Of a stretch of DNA of 35,923 bases, positions 3,205-24,199 are shown piece by piece. A program made the position numbers and the translations under genes. The notes beneath the pieces are model-generated. The model ran no database searches. It was not told where the DNA came from and saw only the letters and a program-made list of their open reading frames with translations. This DNA comes from an uncultured Rhizobiaceae group bacterium. GTDB lineage: Bacteria > Pseudomonadota > Alphaproteobacteria > Rhizobiales > Rhizobiaceae. Each line of letters opens with the position of its first letter. The first letter of the stretch is position 1. The stretch spans positions 1 to 35,923 of the forward strand of contig CALHHQ010000028.1 in the NCBI GenBank assembly GCA_938030645.1, read 5' to 3'.

Positions 3205-4413
3205 TTACCCGATGCGATCGCTTTCAGGATTTGCACCAATTTTGTGAATTGAGAGATCGGCACCAATGCGCTGATCATCATCACTCATCCGCAAGCCAAT
3301 GAACATGCGCAGCACACCATACACGACCGCGCCTGCAATCATGGCGTAAACAACACCAGCGACAGATCCAATCAACTGACTGGTGAAGCTGACGCCACCC
3401 ATGCCACCGAGCGCTTCTGAACCAAAGATACCGCAAGCTAAACCACCAAGAACGCCGCAAAGTCCGTGTAGCGGCCAAACGCCCAAAACATCATCTACTT
3501 TCAACTTGTTTTGACACCAACCGAATGCCCATACAAACAAAGCACCCGCCGCTGCACCAGTTATCAAAGATCCGACCGGATGCATGACATCTGAACCCGC
3601 ACAAACTGCAACCAGACCAGCCAAAGCACCGTTATGAACAAAACCTGGGTCATTGCGCCCCACTATGAGAGCCGAAACAATACCGCCAACCATCGCCATC
3701 AATGAATTGAGAGCGACCAAACCCGAAATTCCTTCCAAGCTCACTGCTGTCATGACGTTAAAGCCGAACCAACCCACGCAGAGCATCCATGATCCCATTG
3801 CAAGCCACGGAATAGACGATGGTGGAATACCTTGAATACGACCATCTGCGCGATAACGATTGAAACGAGGCCCCAGAAGAAGAACGGCAGACAATGCCAT
3901 CCAGCCGCCCACCCCGTGAACAACAATTGAGCCGGCGAAATCATGGAATGGAGCACCAAATGAAGCTTCCAACCAATCATTGATGCCAAAATTACCACCC
4001 CATACGATCCCTTCAAAGAAAGGATAGAACAGGCCAACAATCATCACTGTTGCCAGACACTGGGGTAAAAATTTCATGCGCTCGGCGATACCACCGGAAA
4101 TGATCGCCGGAATAGCTGCCGCAAATGTGGTTAGGAAAAAGAACTTAACAAGATCGTAGCCCTGAAGCGCAAATCCTGTTCCTTCTCCGCCAGACAATGT
4201 CTGCGCGCCCACTAGGAAAGTCACACCATAAGCGATCCAATACCCAATGAAGAAATAAGCGATGGCTGACAGCGCAAAATCCACAAGGATTTTGACAAGC
4301 GCATTCACCTGATTTTTGTGTTGAACCGTTCCCACTTCGAGAAACGCAAAACCGCCATGCATGGCAAAGACAAGTATCGCCCCCATTAGAACGAAAAAGA
4401 CATCAGCACCCAT
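3205..4413 (-). CDS. amt: Ammonium transporter (Amt family), second divergent paralogue with no signal peptide
   Basis: GFAFLEVG, DFAGSIVVH, GWFGFN, NGALAGLVA, DDVLGVWPLHG. Twin His retained. GGGGA RBS. Confidence 0.93.
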   Translation of the reverse strand: MGADVFFVLMGAILVFAMHGGFAFLEVGTVQHKNQVNALVKILVDFALSAIAYFFIGYWIAYGVTFLVGAQTLSGGEGTGFALQGYDLVKFFFLTTFAAAIPAIISGGIAERMKFLPQCLATVMIVGLFYPFFEGIVWGGNFGINDWLEASFGAPFHDFAGSIVVHGVGGWMALSAVLLLGPRFNRYRADGRIQGIPPSSIPWLAMGSWMLCVGWFGFNVMTAVSLEGISGLVALNSLMAMVGGIVSALIVGRNDPGFVHNGALAGLVAVCAGSDVMHPVGSLITGAAAGALFVWAFGWCQNKLKVDDVLGVWPLHGLCGVLGGLACGIFGSEALGGMGGVSFTSQLIGSVAGVVYAMIAGAVVYGVLRMFIGLRMSDDDQRIGADLSIHKIGANPESDRIG

Positions 4414-4493
4414 AATAATCCCCGTTTTCTGCGCGCTGACCAGACAAAACGTCTCCGCAGAGAGACTAAAATGCGCGCAAGTATCCGGTGACT

Positions 4494-4509
4494 ATCAATA
4501 TGTGTGCCA
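4494..4509 (-). promoter_or_regulatory. sigma54 (-24/-12)-like promoter of the second amt
   Basis: Minus strand TGGCAC-ACATA-TTGAT against consensus TGGCAC-N5-TTGC, about 80 bp upstream of the ATG. Confidence 0.65.
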
Positions 4510-4571
4510 GATTCTTAGATGCTTGAATTCATTAACGAATTCAAAAGCATCATTATATCGCGCATATCATA

Positions 4572-4588
4572 TGTCTAAATTTCAGGCA
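4572..4588. promoter_or_regulatory. Putative NtrC-type site
   Basis: TGTCT-AAATTTC-AGGCA, a 17-bp TGC-N11-GCA-like dyad with AT-rich core, about 60 bp upstream of the sigma54-like motif. Confidence 0.5.
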
Positions 4589-4598
4589 GACATGCAAA

Positions 4599-4629
4599 CA
4601 ACCTGCCTGTTTTTTCAACAGGCAGGTTG
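4599..4629. repeat. Perfect 13-bp inverted repeat (possible amtB terminator, stabiliser or operator)
   Basis: caacctgcctgtt-ttttc-aacaggcaggttg, with only a short T run after it on the minus strand. Confidence 0.7.
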
Positions 4630-4688
4630 CATTTCCAAAGACAGGCGCCTCTCTTACGGGGTTTTTGATTTAAAGCGCCCGATAGAAG

Positions 4689-6026
4689 TTAGCCCCGTCC
4701 GAAAGTGAATTCCGGATAGGCCTCCACACCGATCTCGCTGCGGTCAAGACCGTTGGCTTCTTCTTCCTCGGAAACCCGGATGCCGATTGTGTATTTCAGA
4801 GCCAGCCAGATGACTGCGCTGAACACAACGGTGAACACTGCGTAAGCTGCGATGCCATAGATTTGAGCGCCGAAGTTGGCACCACTGTTGGTCAATGGAA
4901 CCGCAAGTGTGCCCCAGATACCTGCAAGCAAGTGAACTGGAATAGCACCAACCACATCATCGATTTTTAGCTTGTCGAGAAGCGGTACTGCTAAGACCAC
5001 GATCACACCACCAACTGCTCCGATAGCAACAGCCGCCAATGGTGAAGGTGTTAGTGGTTCAGCTGTAATGGATACAAGACCTGCCAACGCGCCGTTCAGC
5101 GCTATTGTAACATCAAGCTTGCCGTACATGAATTGCATCACGATCAGTGTTGCGACCACGCCACCTGCTGCAGCAAGGTTTGTGTTAGCAAAGATGCGAG
5201 AAACATCAGACACATCGCCAATGGTGCCCATGGCCAATTGTGATGCGCCGTTGAAGCCAAACCAACCGAGCCACAGAATGAATGTACCCAGTGTTGCAAG
5301 TGGAATGTTGGAACCAACCATTGGAACAACGCGACCATCAGCAGAGTATTTGCCTTTACGTGCACCGAGAATGATTGCGCCGGTCAAAGCAGCCCAGCCA
5401 CCAACTGAGTGAACGATTGTGGAACCCGCAAAGTCGTTGAAGCCTGCTTCTTTCAGGAAGCCTGCACCCCAGTGCCATGAGCCTGAAATCGGATACATGA
5501 TGCCGGTTAGAACAACTGTAAAAATGAGGAACGGCCAGAGTTTCACACGCTCGGCAATGGTACCTGACACGATAGACGCTGTTGCAGCCACAAATGCCAT
5601 TTGGAAGAACCAGTCGGACGCCGTGGAATAACCAGTGTCGAGAGCGTTTCCGCCCACATCATCAAAGCCATAACCAAACACGCTGAACGTACCCATCACG
5701 CCACCATCAACACCGGTGTACATGAGATTATAGCCGATCCAGTAATACATCAGACCAGCGATAGAATAGAGAGCGATGTTTTTCAGACATTGCATTGAAA
5801 CGTTTTTGGCCCGCACCAACCCCGCTTCCAACATAGCAAAACCAGCTGCCATGAACATGACGAGAAAGCCGCCAATAAGGAACAGCAACGTGTTGAAGAT
5901 ATATGCTGAATTTGCGGCAACACTTTCTGCAGTGACCGCATCTTGCGCAAGGCTTGGCCCTGCAAACGCTGAGGCAGCAAGGAGAACCCCTGCAACACCA
6001 GCGCATTTCTTAAATGAAAGTTTCAT
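4689..6026 (-). CDS. amtB: Ammonium transporter AmtB with cleavable signal peptide
   Basis: GFAMLEAG, FFQMAF, DFAGSTIVH, WFGFNGAS, DDVVGAIPVH. Start moved from 6176 to ATG 6026 (or 6032) because of the AAGGG RBS and because the longer form overlaps glnK. Confidence 0.95.
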   Translation of the reverse strand: MKLSFKKCAGVAGVLLAASAFAGPSLAQDAVTAESVAANSAYIFNTLLFLIGGFLVMFMAAGFAMLEAGLVRAKNVSMQCLKNIALYSIAGLMYYWIGYNLMYTGVDGGVMGTFSVFGYGFDDVGGNALDTGYSTASDWFFQMAFVAATASIVSGTIAERVKLWPFLIFTVVLTGIMYPISGSWHWGAGFLKEAGFNDFAGSTIVHSVGGWAALTGAIILGARKGKYSADGRVVPMVGSNIPLATLGTFILWLGWFGFNGASQLAMGTIGDVSDVSRIFANTNLAAAGGVVATLIVMQFMYGKLDVTIALNGALAGLVSITAEPLTPSPLAAVAIGAVGGVIVVLAVPLLDKLKIDDVVGAIPVHLLAGIWGTLAVPLTNSGANFGAQIYGIAAYAVFTVVFSAVIWLALKYTIGIRVSEEEEANGLDRSEIGVEAYPEFTFGRG

Positions 6027-6054
6027 TTTCATACCCTTTGAATGATGTATCGAG

Positions 6055-6393
6055 CTAGAGCGCTTCTGCGCCAGCTTCGCCTGTACGAATGCGCACGGCT
6101 TGTTCCAGATCCAGAACGAAGACTTTACCGTCACCGATTTGGCCTGTGCCTGCTGCTTCGCGCACGGTGTCAACAACTTGCGCAGCAGCTGAATCGTCGA
6201 CAGCTATTTCCAGTTTGAGTTTTGGTACAAAATGGACCGCATATTCTGCGCCACGATAAATCTCGCTTTGTCCTTTTTGACGTCCATAGCCTTTGACTTC
6301 AGTTACGGTCAGACCCTGTACGCCAATAGCGGACAGAGCATCGCGAACTTCATCAAGCTTGAACGGTTTAATGATTGCTATGACAAATTTCAT
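6055..6393 (-). CDS. glnK: P-II nitrogen regulator GlnK
   Basis: 112 aa, IIKPFKL, T-loop YRGAEY with Tyr51, GDGKVFV, RIRTGE. Directly upstream of amtB. Confidence 0.97.
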
Positions 6394-13144: not shown

Positions 13145-13219
<75 letters not shown>

Positions 13220-13348
13220 ATTTTCCCGCTTTAGATCAAACGCGTTTGGACAAAGACGAGCCTTCCGTTCGCGCGTTCGCTTGAATAGCTTCCCAAATTT
13301 TTTGAAAAAAGTGTCAAATCATACAGACAAATTGCAAAATCAAATGTA

Positions 13349-13363
13349 GAACAAAACATAAAC
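13349..13363 (+). promoter_or_regulatory. Putative alphaproteobacterial LexA (SOS) box
   Basis: GAAC-AAAACAT-AAAC, one mismatch to GAAC-N7-GAAC. Ends 13 nt before the ATG and overlaps the expected -10 of TTGCAA at 13332. Confidence 0.65.
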
Positions 13364-13376
13364 ATTTGGAAATTCG

Positions 13377-14621
13377 ATGCGCAAACTCAATCTACAAAAG
13401 AAGCTGGAAATTCTCGCAGACGCTGCGAAATACGATGCATCATGCTCTTCTTCGGGTTCCGAGCGTCGCTCTTCTGTTGGCGGCAAAGGGATTGGGTCCA
13501 CGGAAGGATCAGGAATTTGCCACGCTTACGCGCCTGACGGTCGTTGCATTTCTTTGCTGAAAATTCTTCTCACAAACTATTGCAAATATGATTGCCTTTA
13601 TTGCGTCAACCGCGTGTCCAGCAATGTACAACGCGCACGTTTCACAGTGGAAGAGGTGGTGAAACTGACGCTCGATTTCTACAAACGAAATTATATCGAA
13701 GGTCTATTTTTATCCTCCGGCATCATCCGCGATGCGGATTACACAATGGAACAGGTTGTAGAAGTCGCTCGGCAATTGCGCGAAGTGCACGACTTTCGAG
13801 GCTATATCCATCTCAAGACGATTCCAGAAGCATCTCCTGAACTGCTCGAAAAAGCGGGCCTATACGCAGACCGCCTGTCCATAAACATTGAAATGCCCAC
13901 AGAAGCGGGTTTGCAAAAACTGGCCCCCGAAAAAGATCGACCAAACATCAAACGCATGATGGCACGTTTGCGATTGAACATTGATGGTTTCAAAGAAGAA
14001 CGTGAGAAAATCCGCAAAGCGCCCAAATTCGCGCCTGCTGGCCAGTCAACCCAAATGATTGTGGGGGCAGACAATTCCGCTGACAAAGATGTGCTTTCGA
14101 CGTCAAGCACATTGTATTCAAGCTATAAAATGAAACGTGTCTATTATTCAGCGTTCAGTCCGATACCAGACGCCAACAAAGCTCTGCCTTTGATCAAACC
14201 TCCGCTTATTCGCGAGCATCGACTGTATCAAGCGGATTGGTTGTTGCGGTTTTACGGTTTCAATGTGGATGAAATCACCCGCAATCAGCCCGACGGAAAT
14301 CTGGATCTGGCCATTGATCCTAAACTCTCCTGGGCGCTCGCCAACCGTCACTGGTTTCCAGTGGATGTGAACACAGCTTCAAAAGAAATATTGCTACGTA
14401 TTCCCGGAATTGGCAGCAAGGCCGTGGGAAAAATTTTGTCTGCGCGCCGTTACCAGAGGCTAAGGCTCGAAGACGTCACACGCCTGTCCAATGGAGTAAA
14501 AAAAGCGATGCCATTTATGATTGCAGAAAACTGGCAACCGGGCGCTTTGACAGACAGTCCAAACTTGCGCGAACGATTTTTACCGCCACCAAAACAACTG
14601 TCCTTGTTTTCTACAACATAA
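13377..14621 (+). CDS. Putative DNA modification/repair radical SAM protein with helix-hairpin-helix domain (TIGR03916-like)
   Basis: CKYDCLYC (C69/C73/C76), AKYDASC, GICH, YIEGLFLSSG, GYIHLK, FAPAGQSTQMIVGA, REHRLYQADWLLRFYGF, HhH VNTASKEILLRIPGIG. Confidence 0.92.
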   Translation: MRKLNLQKKLEILADAAKYDASCSSSGSERRSSVGGKGIGSTEGSGICHAYAPDGRCISLLKILLTNYCKYDCLYCVNRVSSNVQRARFTVEEVVKLTLDFYKRNYIEGLFLSSGIIRDADYTMEQVVEVARQLREVHDFRGYIHLKTIPEASPELLEKAGLYADRLSINIEMPTEAGLQKLAPEKDRPNIKRMMARLRLNIDGFKEEREKIRKAPKFAPAGQSTQMIVGADNSADKDVLSTSSTLYSSYKMKRVYYSAFSPIPDANKALPLIKPPLIREHRLYQADWLLRFYGFNVDEITRNQPDGNLDLAIDPKLSWALANRHWFPVDVNTASKEILLRIPGIGSKAVGKILSARRYQRLRLEDVTRLSNGVKKAMPFMIAENWQPGALTDSPNLRERFLPPPKQLSLFSTT

Positions 14622-14627
14622 GGTCGA

Positions 14628-16100
14628 GTGGCAGGAATGCAGACATTTTATCTCAAAGCAGCTGATGATTTTGAAGGGTGGCGCAAAGCTTCAAGGTCTG
14701 CCTTTGAAAACAGCCTTCCTCCAGAGATGGTGTCGTTTCAAATCGAAGGCGAACAGCAATCATTGCTCGACGCATTGAACGAAACCAACACGGCAACAAT
14801 GGCCTGCCAAAAAGACATTGCGACACGAAATCTTATCGCAACAAAAACTTTTCTCGCTCTTGCCAAGCTTGTGGTTTGCCATTCGGATTCAGAGCGGTTT
14901 TCGCTTCTCTACAAACTGTTATTGCGGCTGCAAAACGAAAGAAACCTCCTTGGGAAAACGGTTGATCCCGAAGTGCATCACGCAAACGCACTTGCCAAAG
15001 AGGTACGGCGCGACATGCACAAAATGAAGGCCTTTGTTCGCTTTCGCAAAACAGATGAATTGAAAGATGGTACAGAACAATTTGTAGCGTGGTTTGAACC
15101 CACACATCATATTGTAAAAGCAACAGCGCCCTTTTTCATGCGCCGGTTTGCGGGGATGCACTGGTCCATATTATCGCCAAATGACTGTGTCCATTGGGAT
15201 GGTAAGGTTCTTCGTTTTTCAGAAGGTGTCCCGAAATCCAAGGCACCGAAAGAAGATGCTTTGGAAGATTATTGGAGGTCTTACTACGCATCCATATTCA
15301 ACCCAGCGCGCCTAAAAGTGGGTGCCATGACGTCTGAAATGCCCAAAAAATATTGGAAAAATTTGCCCGAAGCAGATCTCATTCCGGGCCTCATTCAACA
15401 GGCGCAAAGCCGCGAACAATCGATGCTGGAAAGCGCACCAACAGTTCCCATTGAAACCATGATGCAACACCGTCAGCATCCAGTTGACTACGCGCAAGAC
15501 AATCCGACAACGTTCAACTCATTGGAGGAATTGAATTCAGGGCTAAATGGCTGTCGGTTATGTCCGCTCTACAAGCCAGCAACGCAGGTGGTGTGCGGGC
15601 AAGGCGTCGCCTCAAACGATATCATGTTGATCGGCGAACAACCCGGCGACCACGAAGATATTCAAGGTCAACCGTTTGTCGGCCCTGCAGGACAATTGTT
15701 GAAAAGTGTAATGGCCGATCTTGAAATAGAAATTCCCTACATCACAAATGCGGTGAAGCATTTTAAATTCGAACCGTGCGGAAAACGCCGTATTCACAAA
15801 ACTCCAAACGCCAGCGAAATTGATCACTGTCGCTGGTGGCTGCAAAAAGAAATTGAACTTGTGAAGCCAAAAGTAATTGTTGCCATGGGCGCGAGTGCTT
15901 TACGAGGAGTGACTGGGAAGTCCGGTAAAATATCTGAACTCAAACGCAAGCCCATCACACTAGAAAATGAAATTGTATTGGTTGTAACAAGGCATCCATC
16001 ATCTATTCTAAGAACAAAGGACGTGGCCCAAAAAGCAGCAGCCCATCAAGAATTCAAGGAGGACCTTCGCTTTGCACACCAATTGGCAATAGAAATCTAG
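14628..16100 (+). CDS. Fusion of DUF4130/TIGR03915-like domain and UdgX-family uracil-DNA binding protein
   Basis: N-terminal part: HKMKAFVRF, AWFEPTH, FFMRRF, YYASIFNPARLK, EMPKKYWKNLPEA. C-terminal part: CRLC, GEQPG, PFVGPAG, TNAVKHFKF, KRRIHKTP, HPSSILR. Confidence 0.92.
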   Translation: MAGMQTFYLKAADDFEGWRKASRSAFENSLPPEMVSFQIEGEQQSLLDALNETNTATMACQKDIATRNLIATKTFLALAKLVVCHSDSERFSLLYKLLLRLQNERNLLGKTVDPEVHHANALAKEVRRDMHKMKAFVRFRKTDELKDGTEQFVAWFEPTHHIVKATAPFFMRRFAGMHWSILSPNDCVHWDGKVLRFSEGVPKSKAPKEDALEDYWRSYYASIFNPARLKVGAMTSEMPKKYWKNLPEADLIPGLIQQAQSREQSMLESAPTVPIETMMQHRQHPVDYAQDNPTTFNSLEELNSGLNGCRLCPLYKPATQVVCGQGVASNDIMLIGEQPGDHEDIQGQPFVGPAGQLLKSVMADLEIEIPYITNAVKHFKFEPCGKRRIHKTPNASEIDHCRWWLQKEIELVKPKVIVAMGASALRGVTGKSGKISELKRKPITLENEIVLVVTRHPSSILRTKDVAQKAAAHQEFKEDLRFAHQLAIEI

Positions 16101-16124: not shown

Positions 16125-16158
16125 AAAAAACCCGAGTGGCAAAACCATCCGGGTTGTT
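16125..16158. terminator. Terminator hairpin between the convergent UdgX fusion and leuD
   Basis: aaaaaa-cccgagtgg-caaaa-ccatccggg-ttgtt, with a strong T run on the minus strand and a weaker one on plus. Confidence 0.7.
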
Positions 16159-16186: not shown

Positions 16187-16789
16187 TCAGGTCCAAGCAC
16201 GTTCACTCAGTTTGCTTTCGTAAGCATCAATGCTGTCGACCTTTTCCATCGTGAGGCCAATGTCATCAAGACCGTTCAACAAACAGTGCTTTTTGTGCGC
16301 ATCCAGATCGAATGATATCGTGCCACCATCTGGTCCTGAAATAGTCTGACTTTCCAGATCAACAGTCAAAACGGCATTCGAACCGCGATTGGCATCATCC
16401 ATCAATTTCTCAAGTTCTTCTTCACTCACCTGAACAGGTAAAATGCCATTCTTGAAACAGTTGTTGTAAAAGATGTCAGCAAAGCTCGTTGAGATCACAC
16501 AACGAATGCCACGGTCCAACAAAGCCCAAGGCGCATGTTCGCGCGACGAACCACACCCAAAATTGTCACCAGCCACCAAAATAGTTGCTTCGCGATAAGC
16601 AGGTTTGTTCAAAACAAAATCCGGGTTTTCACTGCCATCTTCGTTCAAACGCATCTCAGCAAACAAACCTTCAGATAGGCCTGTGCGTTTGATCGTTTTC
16701 AGATAATCCTTCGGAATGATCATATCGGTGTCGATATTGATGATCGGAAGTGGTGCAGCAACACCAGTCAATTGTGTGAACTTGTCCAT
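16187..16789 (-). CDS. leuD: 3-isopropylmalate dehydratase small subunit
   Basis: [44 protein letters not shown]. Confidence 0.97.
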
Positions 16790-22757: not shown

Positions 22758-22795
22758 CTTCTATCAAAATTCGACTTTTGCAAGGAATGCAATTT

Positions 22796-24199
22796 ATGTC
22801 TGGTGCAACCACTCTTTATGACAAAATCTGGAACGACCATCTGGTTCACGAACAAGAAGATGGAACATGTCTTTTGTACATTGATCGCCATCTTGTGCAC
22901 GAGGTCACAAGCCCACAGGCTTTTGAAGGTTTGCGCATGGCTGGTCGTAAGGTTCGCGCACCTGAAAAAACGCTGGCAGTTGTAGATCACAACATCCCAA
23001 CCACCAACCGTGCCGGCGGAATTGCAAACGAAGAAAGCCGCATTCAGGTAGAAGCGCTTGCCAAGAACGCAGCCGACTTCAATGTGGAATATTATTCTGA
23101 AACCGATAAGCGCCAAGGCATTGTGCACATTATTGGCCCTGAACAAGGTTTCACTTTACCAGGCATGACGATTGTGTGCGGCGACAGCCATACATCAACC
23201 CATGGTGCATTCGGCGCTTTAGCCCACGGAATCGGAACATCTGAGGTTGAACACGTGTTGGCAACGCAGACACTGATTCAGAAAAAGGCCAAGAACATGA
23301 AAGTTGAAGTCACTGGTGGACTCAACAGTGGTGTAACCGCAAAAGACATTATTCTCGCAATCATTGGCGAAATCGGAACCGCTGGCGGTACGGGTTACGT
23401 GATTGAATTCTGTGGCCCAGCCATAGAAGCTTTGTCCATGGAAGGCCGCATGACGGTTTGCAACATGACAATCGAAGGCGGTGCACGTGCTGGCTTGATT
23501 GCACCTGATGAAAAAACGTTCGAATACATCAAAGGCAAGCCCAAAGCGCCGTCCGGTAAAGCTTGGGACATGGCCTTGGAATATTGGAAGGGCTTGAAAA
23601 GCGACGATGATGCTCACTTTGATAAAGTCGTCACAATCGATGCTGACAATCTCACACCCATCGTGTCTTGGGGGTCCAGCCCAGAAGATGTGATTGCGGT
23701 TACAGGTGAAGTGCCTGATCCAGCTTTGATCAAAGACGAAAACAAACGTGCTTCCAAAATGCGTGCCCTAGAGTATATGGGGCTGACAGCTGGAACAAAA
23801 ATCACGGACATCAAGATTGATCGTGTCTGGATTGGCTCGTGCACCAATGGTCGCATCGAAGATCTACGTGCAGCTGCTGAAGTGCTCGATGGCAAAAAGA
23901 TTGCAGACACAGTGTCCGCGATGGTCGTACCCGGTTCTGGTCTGGTAAAAGAGCAAGCCGAAGCAGAGGGTTTGGACAAAATCTTTATTGAAGCTGGTGC
24001 AGAATGGCGTGAGCCAGGCTGTTCCATGTGCCTTGCCATGAATGATGATCGTCTGAAACCAGAGGAACGCTGCGCATCCACCTCAAACCGAAACTTTGAA
24101 GGCCGTCAGGGTTTCAAGGGCCGCACACACCTCGTGTCACCTGCGATGGCTGCAGCGGCTGGCATCGCGGGTCATTTCGTGGACGTTCGTGAAATTTGA
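22796..24199 (+). CDS. leuC: 3-isopropylmalate dehydratase large subunit
   Basis: [55 protein letters not shown]. Start moved to ATG 22796. Confidence 0.97.

Follow-up and report, generated by a model that had tools for sequence, protein, structure and literature searches.

A probably damage-inducible radical SAM-HhH and DUF4130-UdgX gene pair with a predicted sliding-clamp tail in an uncultured Rhizobiaceae bacterium

What does a radical S-adenosylmethionine (SAM) enzyme do beside a uracil-DNA glycosylase (UDG), and is the glycosylase its lasting partner? The question is raised by a two-gene cassette in a 35,923-nucleotide (nt) stretch of DNA from an uncultured Rhizobiaceae group bacterium (contig CALHHQ010000028.1 of assembly GCA_938030645.1; this whole stretch is called the window below). 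Both genes are intact and lie on the + strand between a tRNA-Gly gene and the convergent leuD. An initial annotation had described a radical SAM protein with a helix-hairpin-helix (HhH) module and a DUF4130-UdgX fusion, probably under control of the DNA damage (SOS) response, and had proposed that the enzyme processes the adduct that UdgX leaves on DNA, with phage defence as an alternative. We find that the partner that stays with the enzyme across clades is DUF4130.

Families of the two genes and the constant partner

Both family assignments of the initial annotation held in the profile hidden Markov model search, in which all three NCBIfam models scored above their cut-offs and DUF4130 was found. 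The first gene product matched TIGR03916 (584.4 bits, cut-off 343.5) and carries CxxxCxxC at residues 69-76, HhH at about residues 329-358 and QLSLF at residues 407-411. Its HhH module was detected by Pfam HHH_3 at E = 1.5e-5 (25.4 bits, just below the 27-bit cut-off), and the TIGR03916 family profile matches ComEA-like HhH chains (E = 2e-7). The second product matched TIGR03915 (216.9 bits, cut-off 112.25) and TIGR03914 (273 bits, cut-off 190), with the Pfam domains DUF4130 at residues 86-245 and UDG at residues 322-477. The second gene ends at 16100 and starts either at GTG 14628 or at ATG 14637, of which the ATG is the likelier, since relatives align from that methionine; the 6-nt spacing first given for the two genes is right for the GTG and becomes 15 nt from the ATG.

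UdgX is defined by a motif A with Gln (PMC10359453), and the UDG half of the fusion has it (GEQPG, residue 333), together with KRRIH (383-387), NAVKH and a motif B, HPSSILR (453), with Ile where the UdgX definition, HPS(S/A)(L/V)(L/V)R, has Leu or Val. C306, C309, H375 and C398 occupy the iron-sulfur (Fe-S) ligand positions, and the best solved relative of this half is M. smegmatis UdgX (E = 3e-42). Among proteobacterial homologues the motif A Gln was present in 74/75 and the R-loop His, by pattern, in 71/75; of the four sequences that the pattern missed, two prove to have the loop when inspected. From these motifs, this copy is predicted to stay covalently joined to the abasic site that it makes by excising uracil. 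The genome has three further UDG-superfamily matches, and the UdgX domain is therefore not its only uracil glycosylase candidate.

A DUF4130-UdgX fusion adjacent to the enzyme was called in 73 of 81 proteobacterial loci; six of the eight others were cut by contig ends and two had a DUF4130 match beyond the downstream filter. A DUF4130 match was found in 78/80 loci from the GTDB collection, in which about 27,000 stretches are estimated to match the cassette family. A second set of 85 loci from other clades consisted of 80 metagenome loci chosen by likeness to a divergent member plus five annotated records. DUF4130 lay beside the enzyme in 79/85 of these and a UDG nearby in 0/85, a count that covers the fetched flanks of ~4 kb. 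Of the 58 loci whose flanks reach 1.5 kb or more on the upstream side and 2.5 kb or more on the downstream side, 55 had DUF4130. Bacteroides thetaiotaomicron has a TIGR03916 protein over cut-off and no TIGR03914 match, and in the records of Acinetobacter and Pusillibacter the pair stands by itself, without UDG. In Caulobacter vibrioides both TIGR03916 and TIGR03914 score above their cut-offs. We conclude from the counts in the second set and from B. thetaiotaomicron that DUF4130 is the constant partner of the enzyme and UdgX a lineage add-on. By gene content, this proteobacterial add-on appears to depend on the enzyme-DUF4130 pair and not the reverse. Single-chain enzyme-DUF4130 fusions of 666-729 residues (P0127, P0131, P0132) were seen in 3/33 scanned cluster representatives of 150 listed. 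In two of the three a QLS[LF]F stretch remains where the parts join, and these may be two genes merged in the gene call; P0132 has no clamp-like motif at this point and seems to be a genuine fusion. An AlphaFold 3 complex of Lachnospiraceae enzyme-DUF4130 orthologues, whose narrow channel would admit single-stranded nucleic acid, has been predicted in print (10.64898/2026.08.19.745780).

These counts bear directly on the proposal that the enzyme is a dedicated resolvase, in which UdgX caps uracil-derived abasic sites and the enzyme breaks or processes the adduct. The frequency of the fusion in proteobacterial loci speaks for it, as does the open fate of UdgX adducts (PMC10359453). In addition, among 61 Rhizobiales genomes UdgX was over cut-off in 14, all 14 with the enzyme, and in 0/45 enzyme-less genomes; this includes three in which the DUF4130-UdgX gene was unlinked from the enzyme gene (L205 in G045, L206 in G026 and L207 in G020). 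The Gammaproteobacteria sample had 2/121 positive genomes, too few for a co-occurrence count. On the other side, the complete lack of a nearby UDG in the other-clade loci, the B. thetaiotaomicron enzyme without TIGR03914 and the pair standing alone in Acinetobacter and Pusillibacter weaken the idea that the enzyme exists to process the UdgX adduct, and its conserved residues are alike with and without a UdgX partner. We regard a dedicated resolvase as unlikely.

Probable damage control and the clamp-type tail

The alphaproteobacterial LexA consensus is GAAC-N7-GAAC, which also precedes the lexA gene of this genome (site at C366). The LexA-like box reported upstream of the cassette, GAACAAAACATAAAC, has one mismatch to it. 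A matrix trained on 70 orthologous sites, all from other genomes, placed this site 7th of 4,777,566 genome positions. Rank 1 lies before a YifB/comM gene, rank 3 before an imuA-like gene, rank 4 before lexA and rank 6 before the gene of a RecD2-like helicase. Ranks 2 and 5 (G000 C129:3052 and C321:16509) have no long open reading frame (ORF) within 260 nt and may possibly serve small or cut-off SOS genes. The strict consensus was found within 150 nt of the start in 70/80 GTDB loci, vs 0.3% of shuffled upstream regions. Seven of the other ten have CTGT-N8-[AC]CAG, one has GAAC-N7-GTAC, and two, both Xanthomonadales, have neither, so that 77/80 homologous loci carry one or the other LexA-type box (nine loci were set apart as non-alphaproteobacterial, eight from their record titles and L072 for want of an alphaproteobacterial box, which does not affect the 80-locus count). 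The operator is identical in G027. Support for the operator comes from matrix rank and conservation, not from the bare pattern. Among the unlinked DUF4130-UdgX genes of G020, G026 and G045, one of three, the G026 copy, has a strict box of its own. Around the operator, a short inverted repeat, CAAATGT ... ACATTTG (window 13335-13370), was spotted by eye.

Published data on orthologues point the same way. Predicted SOS regulons of Bacteroidetes include the operon (PMC8565304, which cites Verrucomicrobia and Caulobacter/Alphaproteobacteria SOS work for the same operon), and the C. acetobutylicum cassette is predicted to be under LexA (PMC3828012). In A. baumannii after ultraviolet (UV) irradiation, the TIGR03915 gene rose ~8-fold and its 'radical SAM' neighbour ~14-fold (ratios of three-replicate means that we calculated from supplement rows of PMC12392091), and UV induction of both genes was lost in a ddaA knockout (PMC12392091). 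Damage control of the cassette family is thus seen under four different regulators, and in several phyla. Operator conservation and these orthologue data support the SOS control first proposed, and the two-gene unit is likely induced by DNA damage through LexA; SOS control of this operon family is not new and has already been published.

An imuB-like gene or dnaE2 was found within 4 kb of the cassette in 16/81 loci (14 each, both in 12), on the same strand around the cassette in 13 and divergent in three. Each neighbour was named from a single representative (Pfam IMS, E = 2e-10; error-prone polymerase, E = 4e-272), and the representative of the neighbour labelled 'imuA' had no family match. 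The cassette lies between the imuB-like gene and dnaE2 in many Sphingomonadales (L056, L059, L067, L075, L085, L086, L098, L113 and others) and back to back with an imuB-dnaE2 cluster in Bradyrhizobium and Methylopila (L088, L090, L094). This clustering bears on a damage-induced base writer or mutator, in which the pair would alter an intact base in single-stranded DNA (e.g. by turning thymine or cytosine into a uracil-like base), after which UdgX plus ImuB-DnaE2 would convert the modified base to mutations. Shared LexA control could by itself explain the clustering, 65/81 loci have no imuB/dnaE2 neighbours, no modified base is known, and the residues shared among DUF4130 domains include no clear catalytic set. 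To a writer of this kind, and to the conversion of its product by UdgX and ImuB-DnaE2, we give a small chance.

The sliding-clamp motif has the consensus QL[SD]LF. Q-x-x-[LMIF]-[FL] was present in the last 14 residues of 74/81 homologues of the enzyme vs 18/1280 long ORFs of this genome, and QL[SD]L[FL] in that position only in the enzyme itself among the 1280, bearing out the clamp-type C-terminus of the initial annotation. With a looser rule (last 45 residues), 76/85 loci of other clades had the tail vs 58/1280 ORFs. The QLSLF form appears in the sliding-clamp literature, it falls in the low-confidence tail of the enzyme model, and dnaN is present in the genome. The tail likely docks on the replication sliding clamp, as judged from the motif and its conservation. 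A possible second clamp motif lies in a DUF4130 loop (residues 40-44, QQSLL); this candidate was rejected as a general feature, the full Q-x-x-[LMIF]-[FL] occurring in 3/76 and 12/68 aligned domains, with a hydrophobic pair near residue 43 in 73/76 and 44/68.

Enzyme reaction and the DUF4130 fold

An assigned reaction for the enzyme family was not found in the literature searched, with most subscription papers outside its coverage, and structure searches turned up no solved member of either the enzyme family or DUF4130. The AlphaFold model of the enzyme (mean predicted local distance difference test, pLDDT, 89) is a radical SAM barrel, with residues 26-42 poorly predicted. Its best structural matches, lipoyl synthase (LipA), HydE and biotin synthase (BioB), tie at Z 16.7-17.5. 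Spore photoproduct lyase (SplB) came at Z 12.2, rank 21, below 20 other chains, and no SplB family model was among the NCBIfam matches of the enzyme.

C23, C48, H49 and C57 of the enzyme are invariant in all core members (80/80 + 79/79 = 159/159) and are a possible second metal site, which we take as a lead. The N-terminal extension that holds them is aligned, starting at model residue 4, with its counterpart in lipoyl synthase, which binds an auxiliary cluster (PMC9585515). The enzyme might be a two-cluster sulfur-transfer or redox enzyme, in which C23, C48 and C57 (with H49) would hold an auxiliary Fe-S cluster and sulfur would be inserted into DNA or an adduct, or the cluster would quench a substrate radical. 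Besides the invariance of the four residues, the tied best match to lipoyl synthase (Z 17.5, root-mean-square deviation (rmsd) 3.6, 232 residues aligned) fits such an enzyme, and auxiliary clusters donate sulfur in LipA, BioB and MiaB (PMC9585515). However, HydE and BioB are within 1 Z unit, the LipA motifs Cx4Cx5C and RSSY are absent from the enzyme (the spacing here is Cx24Cx8C), and a profile link between the enzyme and LipA was tried and rejected (hhalign probability 12%, 44 columns only). The four residues are also patchy in 24 distant homologues, of which only 9 have the three Cys, and their spatial closeness is unreadable from the model. Both forms of the two-cluster proposal, sulfur insertion and radical quenching, appear doubtful to us.

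The distant group (P0166, P0180, P0183 and about 20 others; 37-45% identity) has the radical core and HhH, with the extra cysteines often missing; Gemmatirosa L122, the sole locus of this group examined, has no DUF4130 match. At L211 (G108:C1:1120798-1122087) a TIGR03916 match contains one TGA near its end and is followed by a DUF4130-UdgX gene; the TGA is probably a normal stop codon inside an over-long match.

The DUF4130 domain was modelled with a pLDDT of 91, and its top 14 structural matches are all of the DHH family (RecJ, Cdc45, PAP phosphatase). The metal-binding catalytic motif of DHH proteins is absent from the DUF4130 protein, and the residues shared between clades, mostly R, F, P, W and Y, form no such set. 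A preprint likewise reports a weak DHH-DHHA1 likeness without DHH catalytic motifs (10.64898/2026.08.19.745780). The model suggests that DUF4130 may guide single-stranded DNA in the manner of a RecJ/Cdc45-like protein without catalytic activity.

We propose that a clamp-tethered radical enzyme acts with DUF4130 on damaged single-stranded template, with UdgX as an add-on, a reading to which we assign an even chance; about the exact lesion we are much less sure. DNA damage would release LexA and induce the two-gene unit. The radical SAM enzyme would pair with the DUF4130 domain and dock through its QLSLF tail on DnaN, DUF4130 would guide the single-stranded template to the enzyme active site, and the HhH module would grip the DNA. 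A 5'-deoxyadenosyl radical would then abstract a hydrogen from the damaged nucleotide and leave the site repairable or bypassable. The likeliest lesion would be an abasic site or a damaged pyrimidine, located in a post-replication gap. Where UdgX is fused, it would excise uracil, stay bound to the abasic site and so protect or mark sites beside the radical enzyme; in other lineages such sites may come from other glycosylases or from spontaneous base loss.

Several observations weigh against this proposal. The bare one-mismatch operator pattern is not above chance (37 matches in the window vs 32.5 expected), and the LexA matrix was trained on orthologous sites. Structure names no substrate, since SplB is no closer to the enzyme model than many unrelated radical SAM enzymes are, and the DUF4130-DHH likeness is weak (Z 8.4-5.2, rmsd 5.7 for the match with the best Z, Foldseek E >0.04). 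The 14/14 co-occurrence of UdgX with the enzyme fits a tighter link in Rhizobiales than 'add-on' implies, with the caveat that these genomes are kin and not independent. In vitro, UDGX formed no cross-links with abasic sites made beforehand (PMC10776899), and UdgX would therefore cap only its own sites. The unit is also dispensable: the cassette is present in 11/30 genus relatives, and 3 of those 11 copies are broken.

Two further readings were considered. The enzyme could be a radical strand cutter: where the strand is blocked it would take a hydrogen from the sugar, and the strand, once nicked, would pass to recombination. In E. coli, UdgX adducts call for the functions of RecA, RecB and Ruv (PMC4787834), and tight repression would suit a harmful activity; those E. 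coli experiments lacked the radical SAM enzyme, and we consider such cutting very unlikely. The other is more far-reaching: a two-cluster enzyme (second cluster at C23/C48/C57, placed like the sulfur-donor cluster of lipoyl synthase) on the clamp, with a RecJ-like guide for single-stranded DNA, would carry out a new type of DNA reaction. That reaction might break covalent carbon-linked blocks, for instance protein-DNA or abasic-site adducts, or might be an SOS writing of a sulfur-containing base with UdgX and DnaE2 as readers. We offer both the enzyme and its suggested reaction as speculation with a slim chance of being right.

Setting of the cassette and comparison with known systems

The positions of the cassette features and of its borders are collected in Table 1.

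Table 1. Cassette features and bordering elements, with positions in the window and the basis of each assignment
Feature	Position	Strand	Basis or remark
tRNA-Gly(GCC)	13145..13219	+	directly upstream; marks the site of the cassette in this genome, not part of the cassette
LexA-type operator, GAAC-N7-AAAC	13349..13363	+	7/8 core bases; 13 nt before the radical SAM start
TIGR03916 radical SAM-HhH protein, 414 residues	13377..14621	+	584 bits; AlphaFold model pLDDT 89
N-terminal segment with C23, C48, H49, C57	13443..13547	+	possible second metal or Fe-S site
CxxxCxxC (C69, C73, C76), radical SAM cluster motif	13581..13604	+	183/183 aligned homologues
HhH DNA-binding module	14361..14450	+	Pfam HHH_3; family profile vs ComEA-like HhH chains
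QLSLF, predicted sliding-clamp-binding motif, C-terminus	14595..14609	+	conservation of the tail motif
TIGR03915 / DUF4130 domain	14637..15374	+	217 bits; model pLDDT 91; predicted silent DHH-DHHA1-like scaffold
UdgX domain and stop codon	15513..16100	+	TIGR03914 273 bits; alignment to 6AIL; KRRIH at 15783-15797
Hairpin between cassette and convergent leuD	16129..16155	.	chiefly the leuD terminator, possibly used both ways

The closest named homologues are from Pseudahrensia aquimaris (84% identity) and Ahrensia sp. R2A130 (77%). A close relative, G023, has no TIGR03916 match; about 540 bases after its tRNA-Gly its DNA matches the window from 16125 on, and no cassette remnant was seen at this empty site. 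G027 and G009 carry the cassette at a different site, and G001, G005, G014, G020 and G025 beside yet other genes; a tRNA gene lies within 1.5 kb in 0/15 other cassette loci. In three genus relatives (G005, G018, G024) cassette copies are frameshifted or decayed (L014-L018). The cassette moves and is often lost. No mobile-element marks were seen at it, and its content of G and C, ~47-48%, is like that of the flanks. As for the terminator hairpin noted downstream, the stem is real and folds well (z -3.06), and the terminator scan made no call there. Since the DNA from 16125 on is retained in the cassette-free G023, the hairpin is chiefly the terminator of leuD, and we set it aside as the cassette's own.

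The flanking genes in the window are housekeeping genes. leuD (16187-16789) and an aconitase-family gene, likely leuC (22778-24199), lie 6 kb apart in opposite directions, and two ammonium transporter genes stand in tandem at 3205-6176. recA and lipA were not found in the genome, which is uninformative at a completeness of 61.5%.

Patchy presence and changing location would fit a defence against phages whose DNA contains uracil or is modified, and the Acinetobacter regulator DdaA controls damage and defence genes together (PMC12392091). No family in PADLOC 2.0 matched either protein, though, and no defence gene was among the five recurring neighbour clusters scanned; the neighbours here are housekeeping genes, the clamp-type tail points to host replication, and most non-proteobacterial copies are without the uracil-reading domain. 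Carriage by phages is sparse: three IMG/VR loci, one of them full length, and 10/50,697 phage records, of which 8 are unannotated faecal contigs. We read these copies as host DNA. One IMG/VR contig of 12.6 kb (L116) has a full-length enzyme gene and a strict LexA box, and may be host DNA. The defence alternative of the initial annotation thus gained no support and is, in our judgement, extremely unlikely.

Much of this is already known: the families are curated, damage control has been published, and the enzyme-DUF4130 pairing has been predicted in print. The present copy is an ordinary, intact member of the widespread, catalogued TIGR03916/03915/03914 unit and adds little alone. It agrees with that unit in having all three models over cut-off, the same gene order, the fusion and a LexA-type site, and differs in its one-mismatch operator and its unusual tRNA-Gly/leuD site, nothing of substance.

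SplB (PDB 4FHC) is a radical SAM enzyme that repairs DNA directly, and is a model for how the present enzyme may work. It belongs to a separate family; an HhH module, a clamp-type tail and a partner protein set the present enzyme apart. If our proposal is true, the enzyme would be a second kind of radical SAM DNA repair enzyme besides SplB, one tied to the replication clamp. LipA (PDB 4U0P) is the tied best structural match, including the N-terminal, cysteine-bearing extension of the enzyme. It differs in sequence (11% identity) and in its motifs, which the enzyme does not have, finds no profile support, and acts on a protein-bound octanoyl chain.

SRAP proteins (YedK, HMCES) covalently cap abasic sites in single-stranded DNA. 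They are SOS-linked and found with mutagenic polymerases (PMC3765255). Their fold is unrelated to that of UdgX, and UDGX links only to sites of its own making. The Lachnospiraceae pair C806_00603/00604 is of the same two families, and its DHH-DHHA1 likeness is repeated by our DUF4130 model. It has no UdgX domain, and the main text of the preprint does not use the terms SOS, LexA, UdgX or auxiliary, and has 'clamp' only for another system (10.64898/2026.08.19.745780). M. smegmatis UdgX (PDB 6AIL, 6AJO; PMC4787834, PMC10359453) aligns with our UDG half at the motif A Gln, KRRIH, motif B and the Fe-S positions. In contrast to the mycobacterial protein, UdgX here forms the C-terminal part of a fusion with DUF4130, encoded in one operon with a radical SAM gene, and, if the proposed mechanism is true, UdgX would gain a cellular context.

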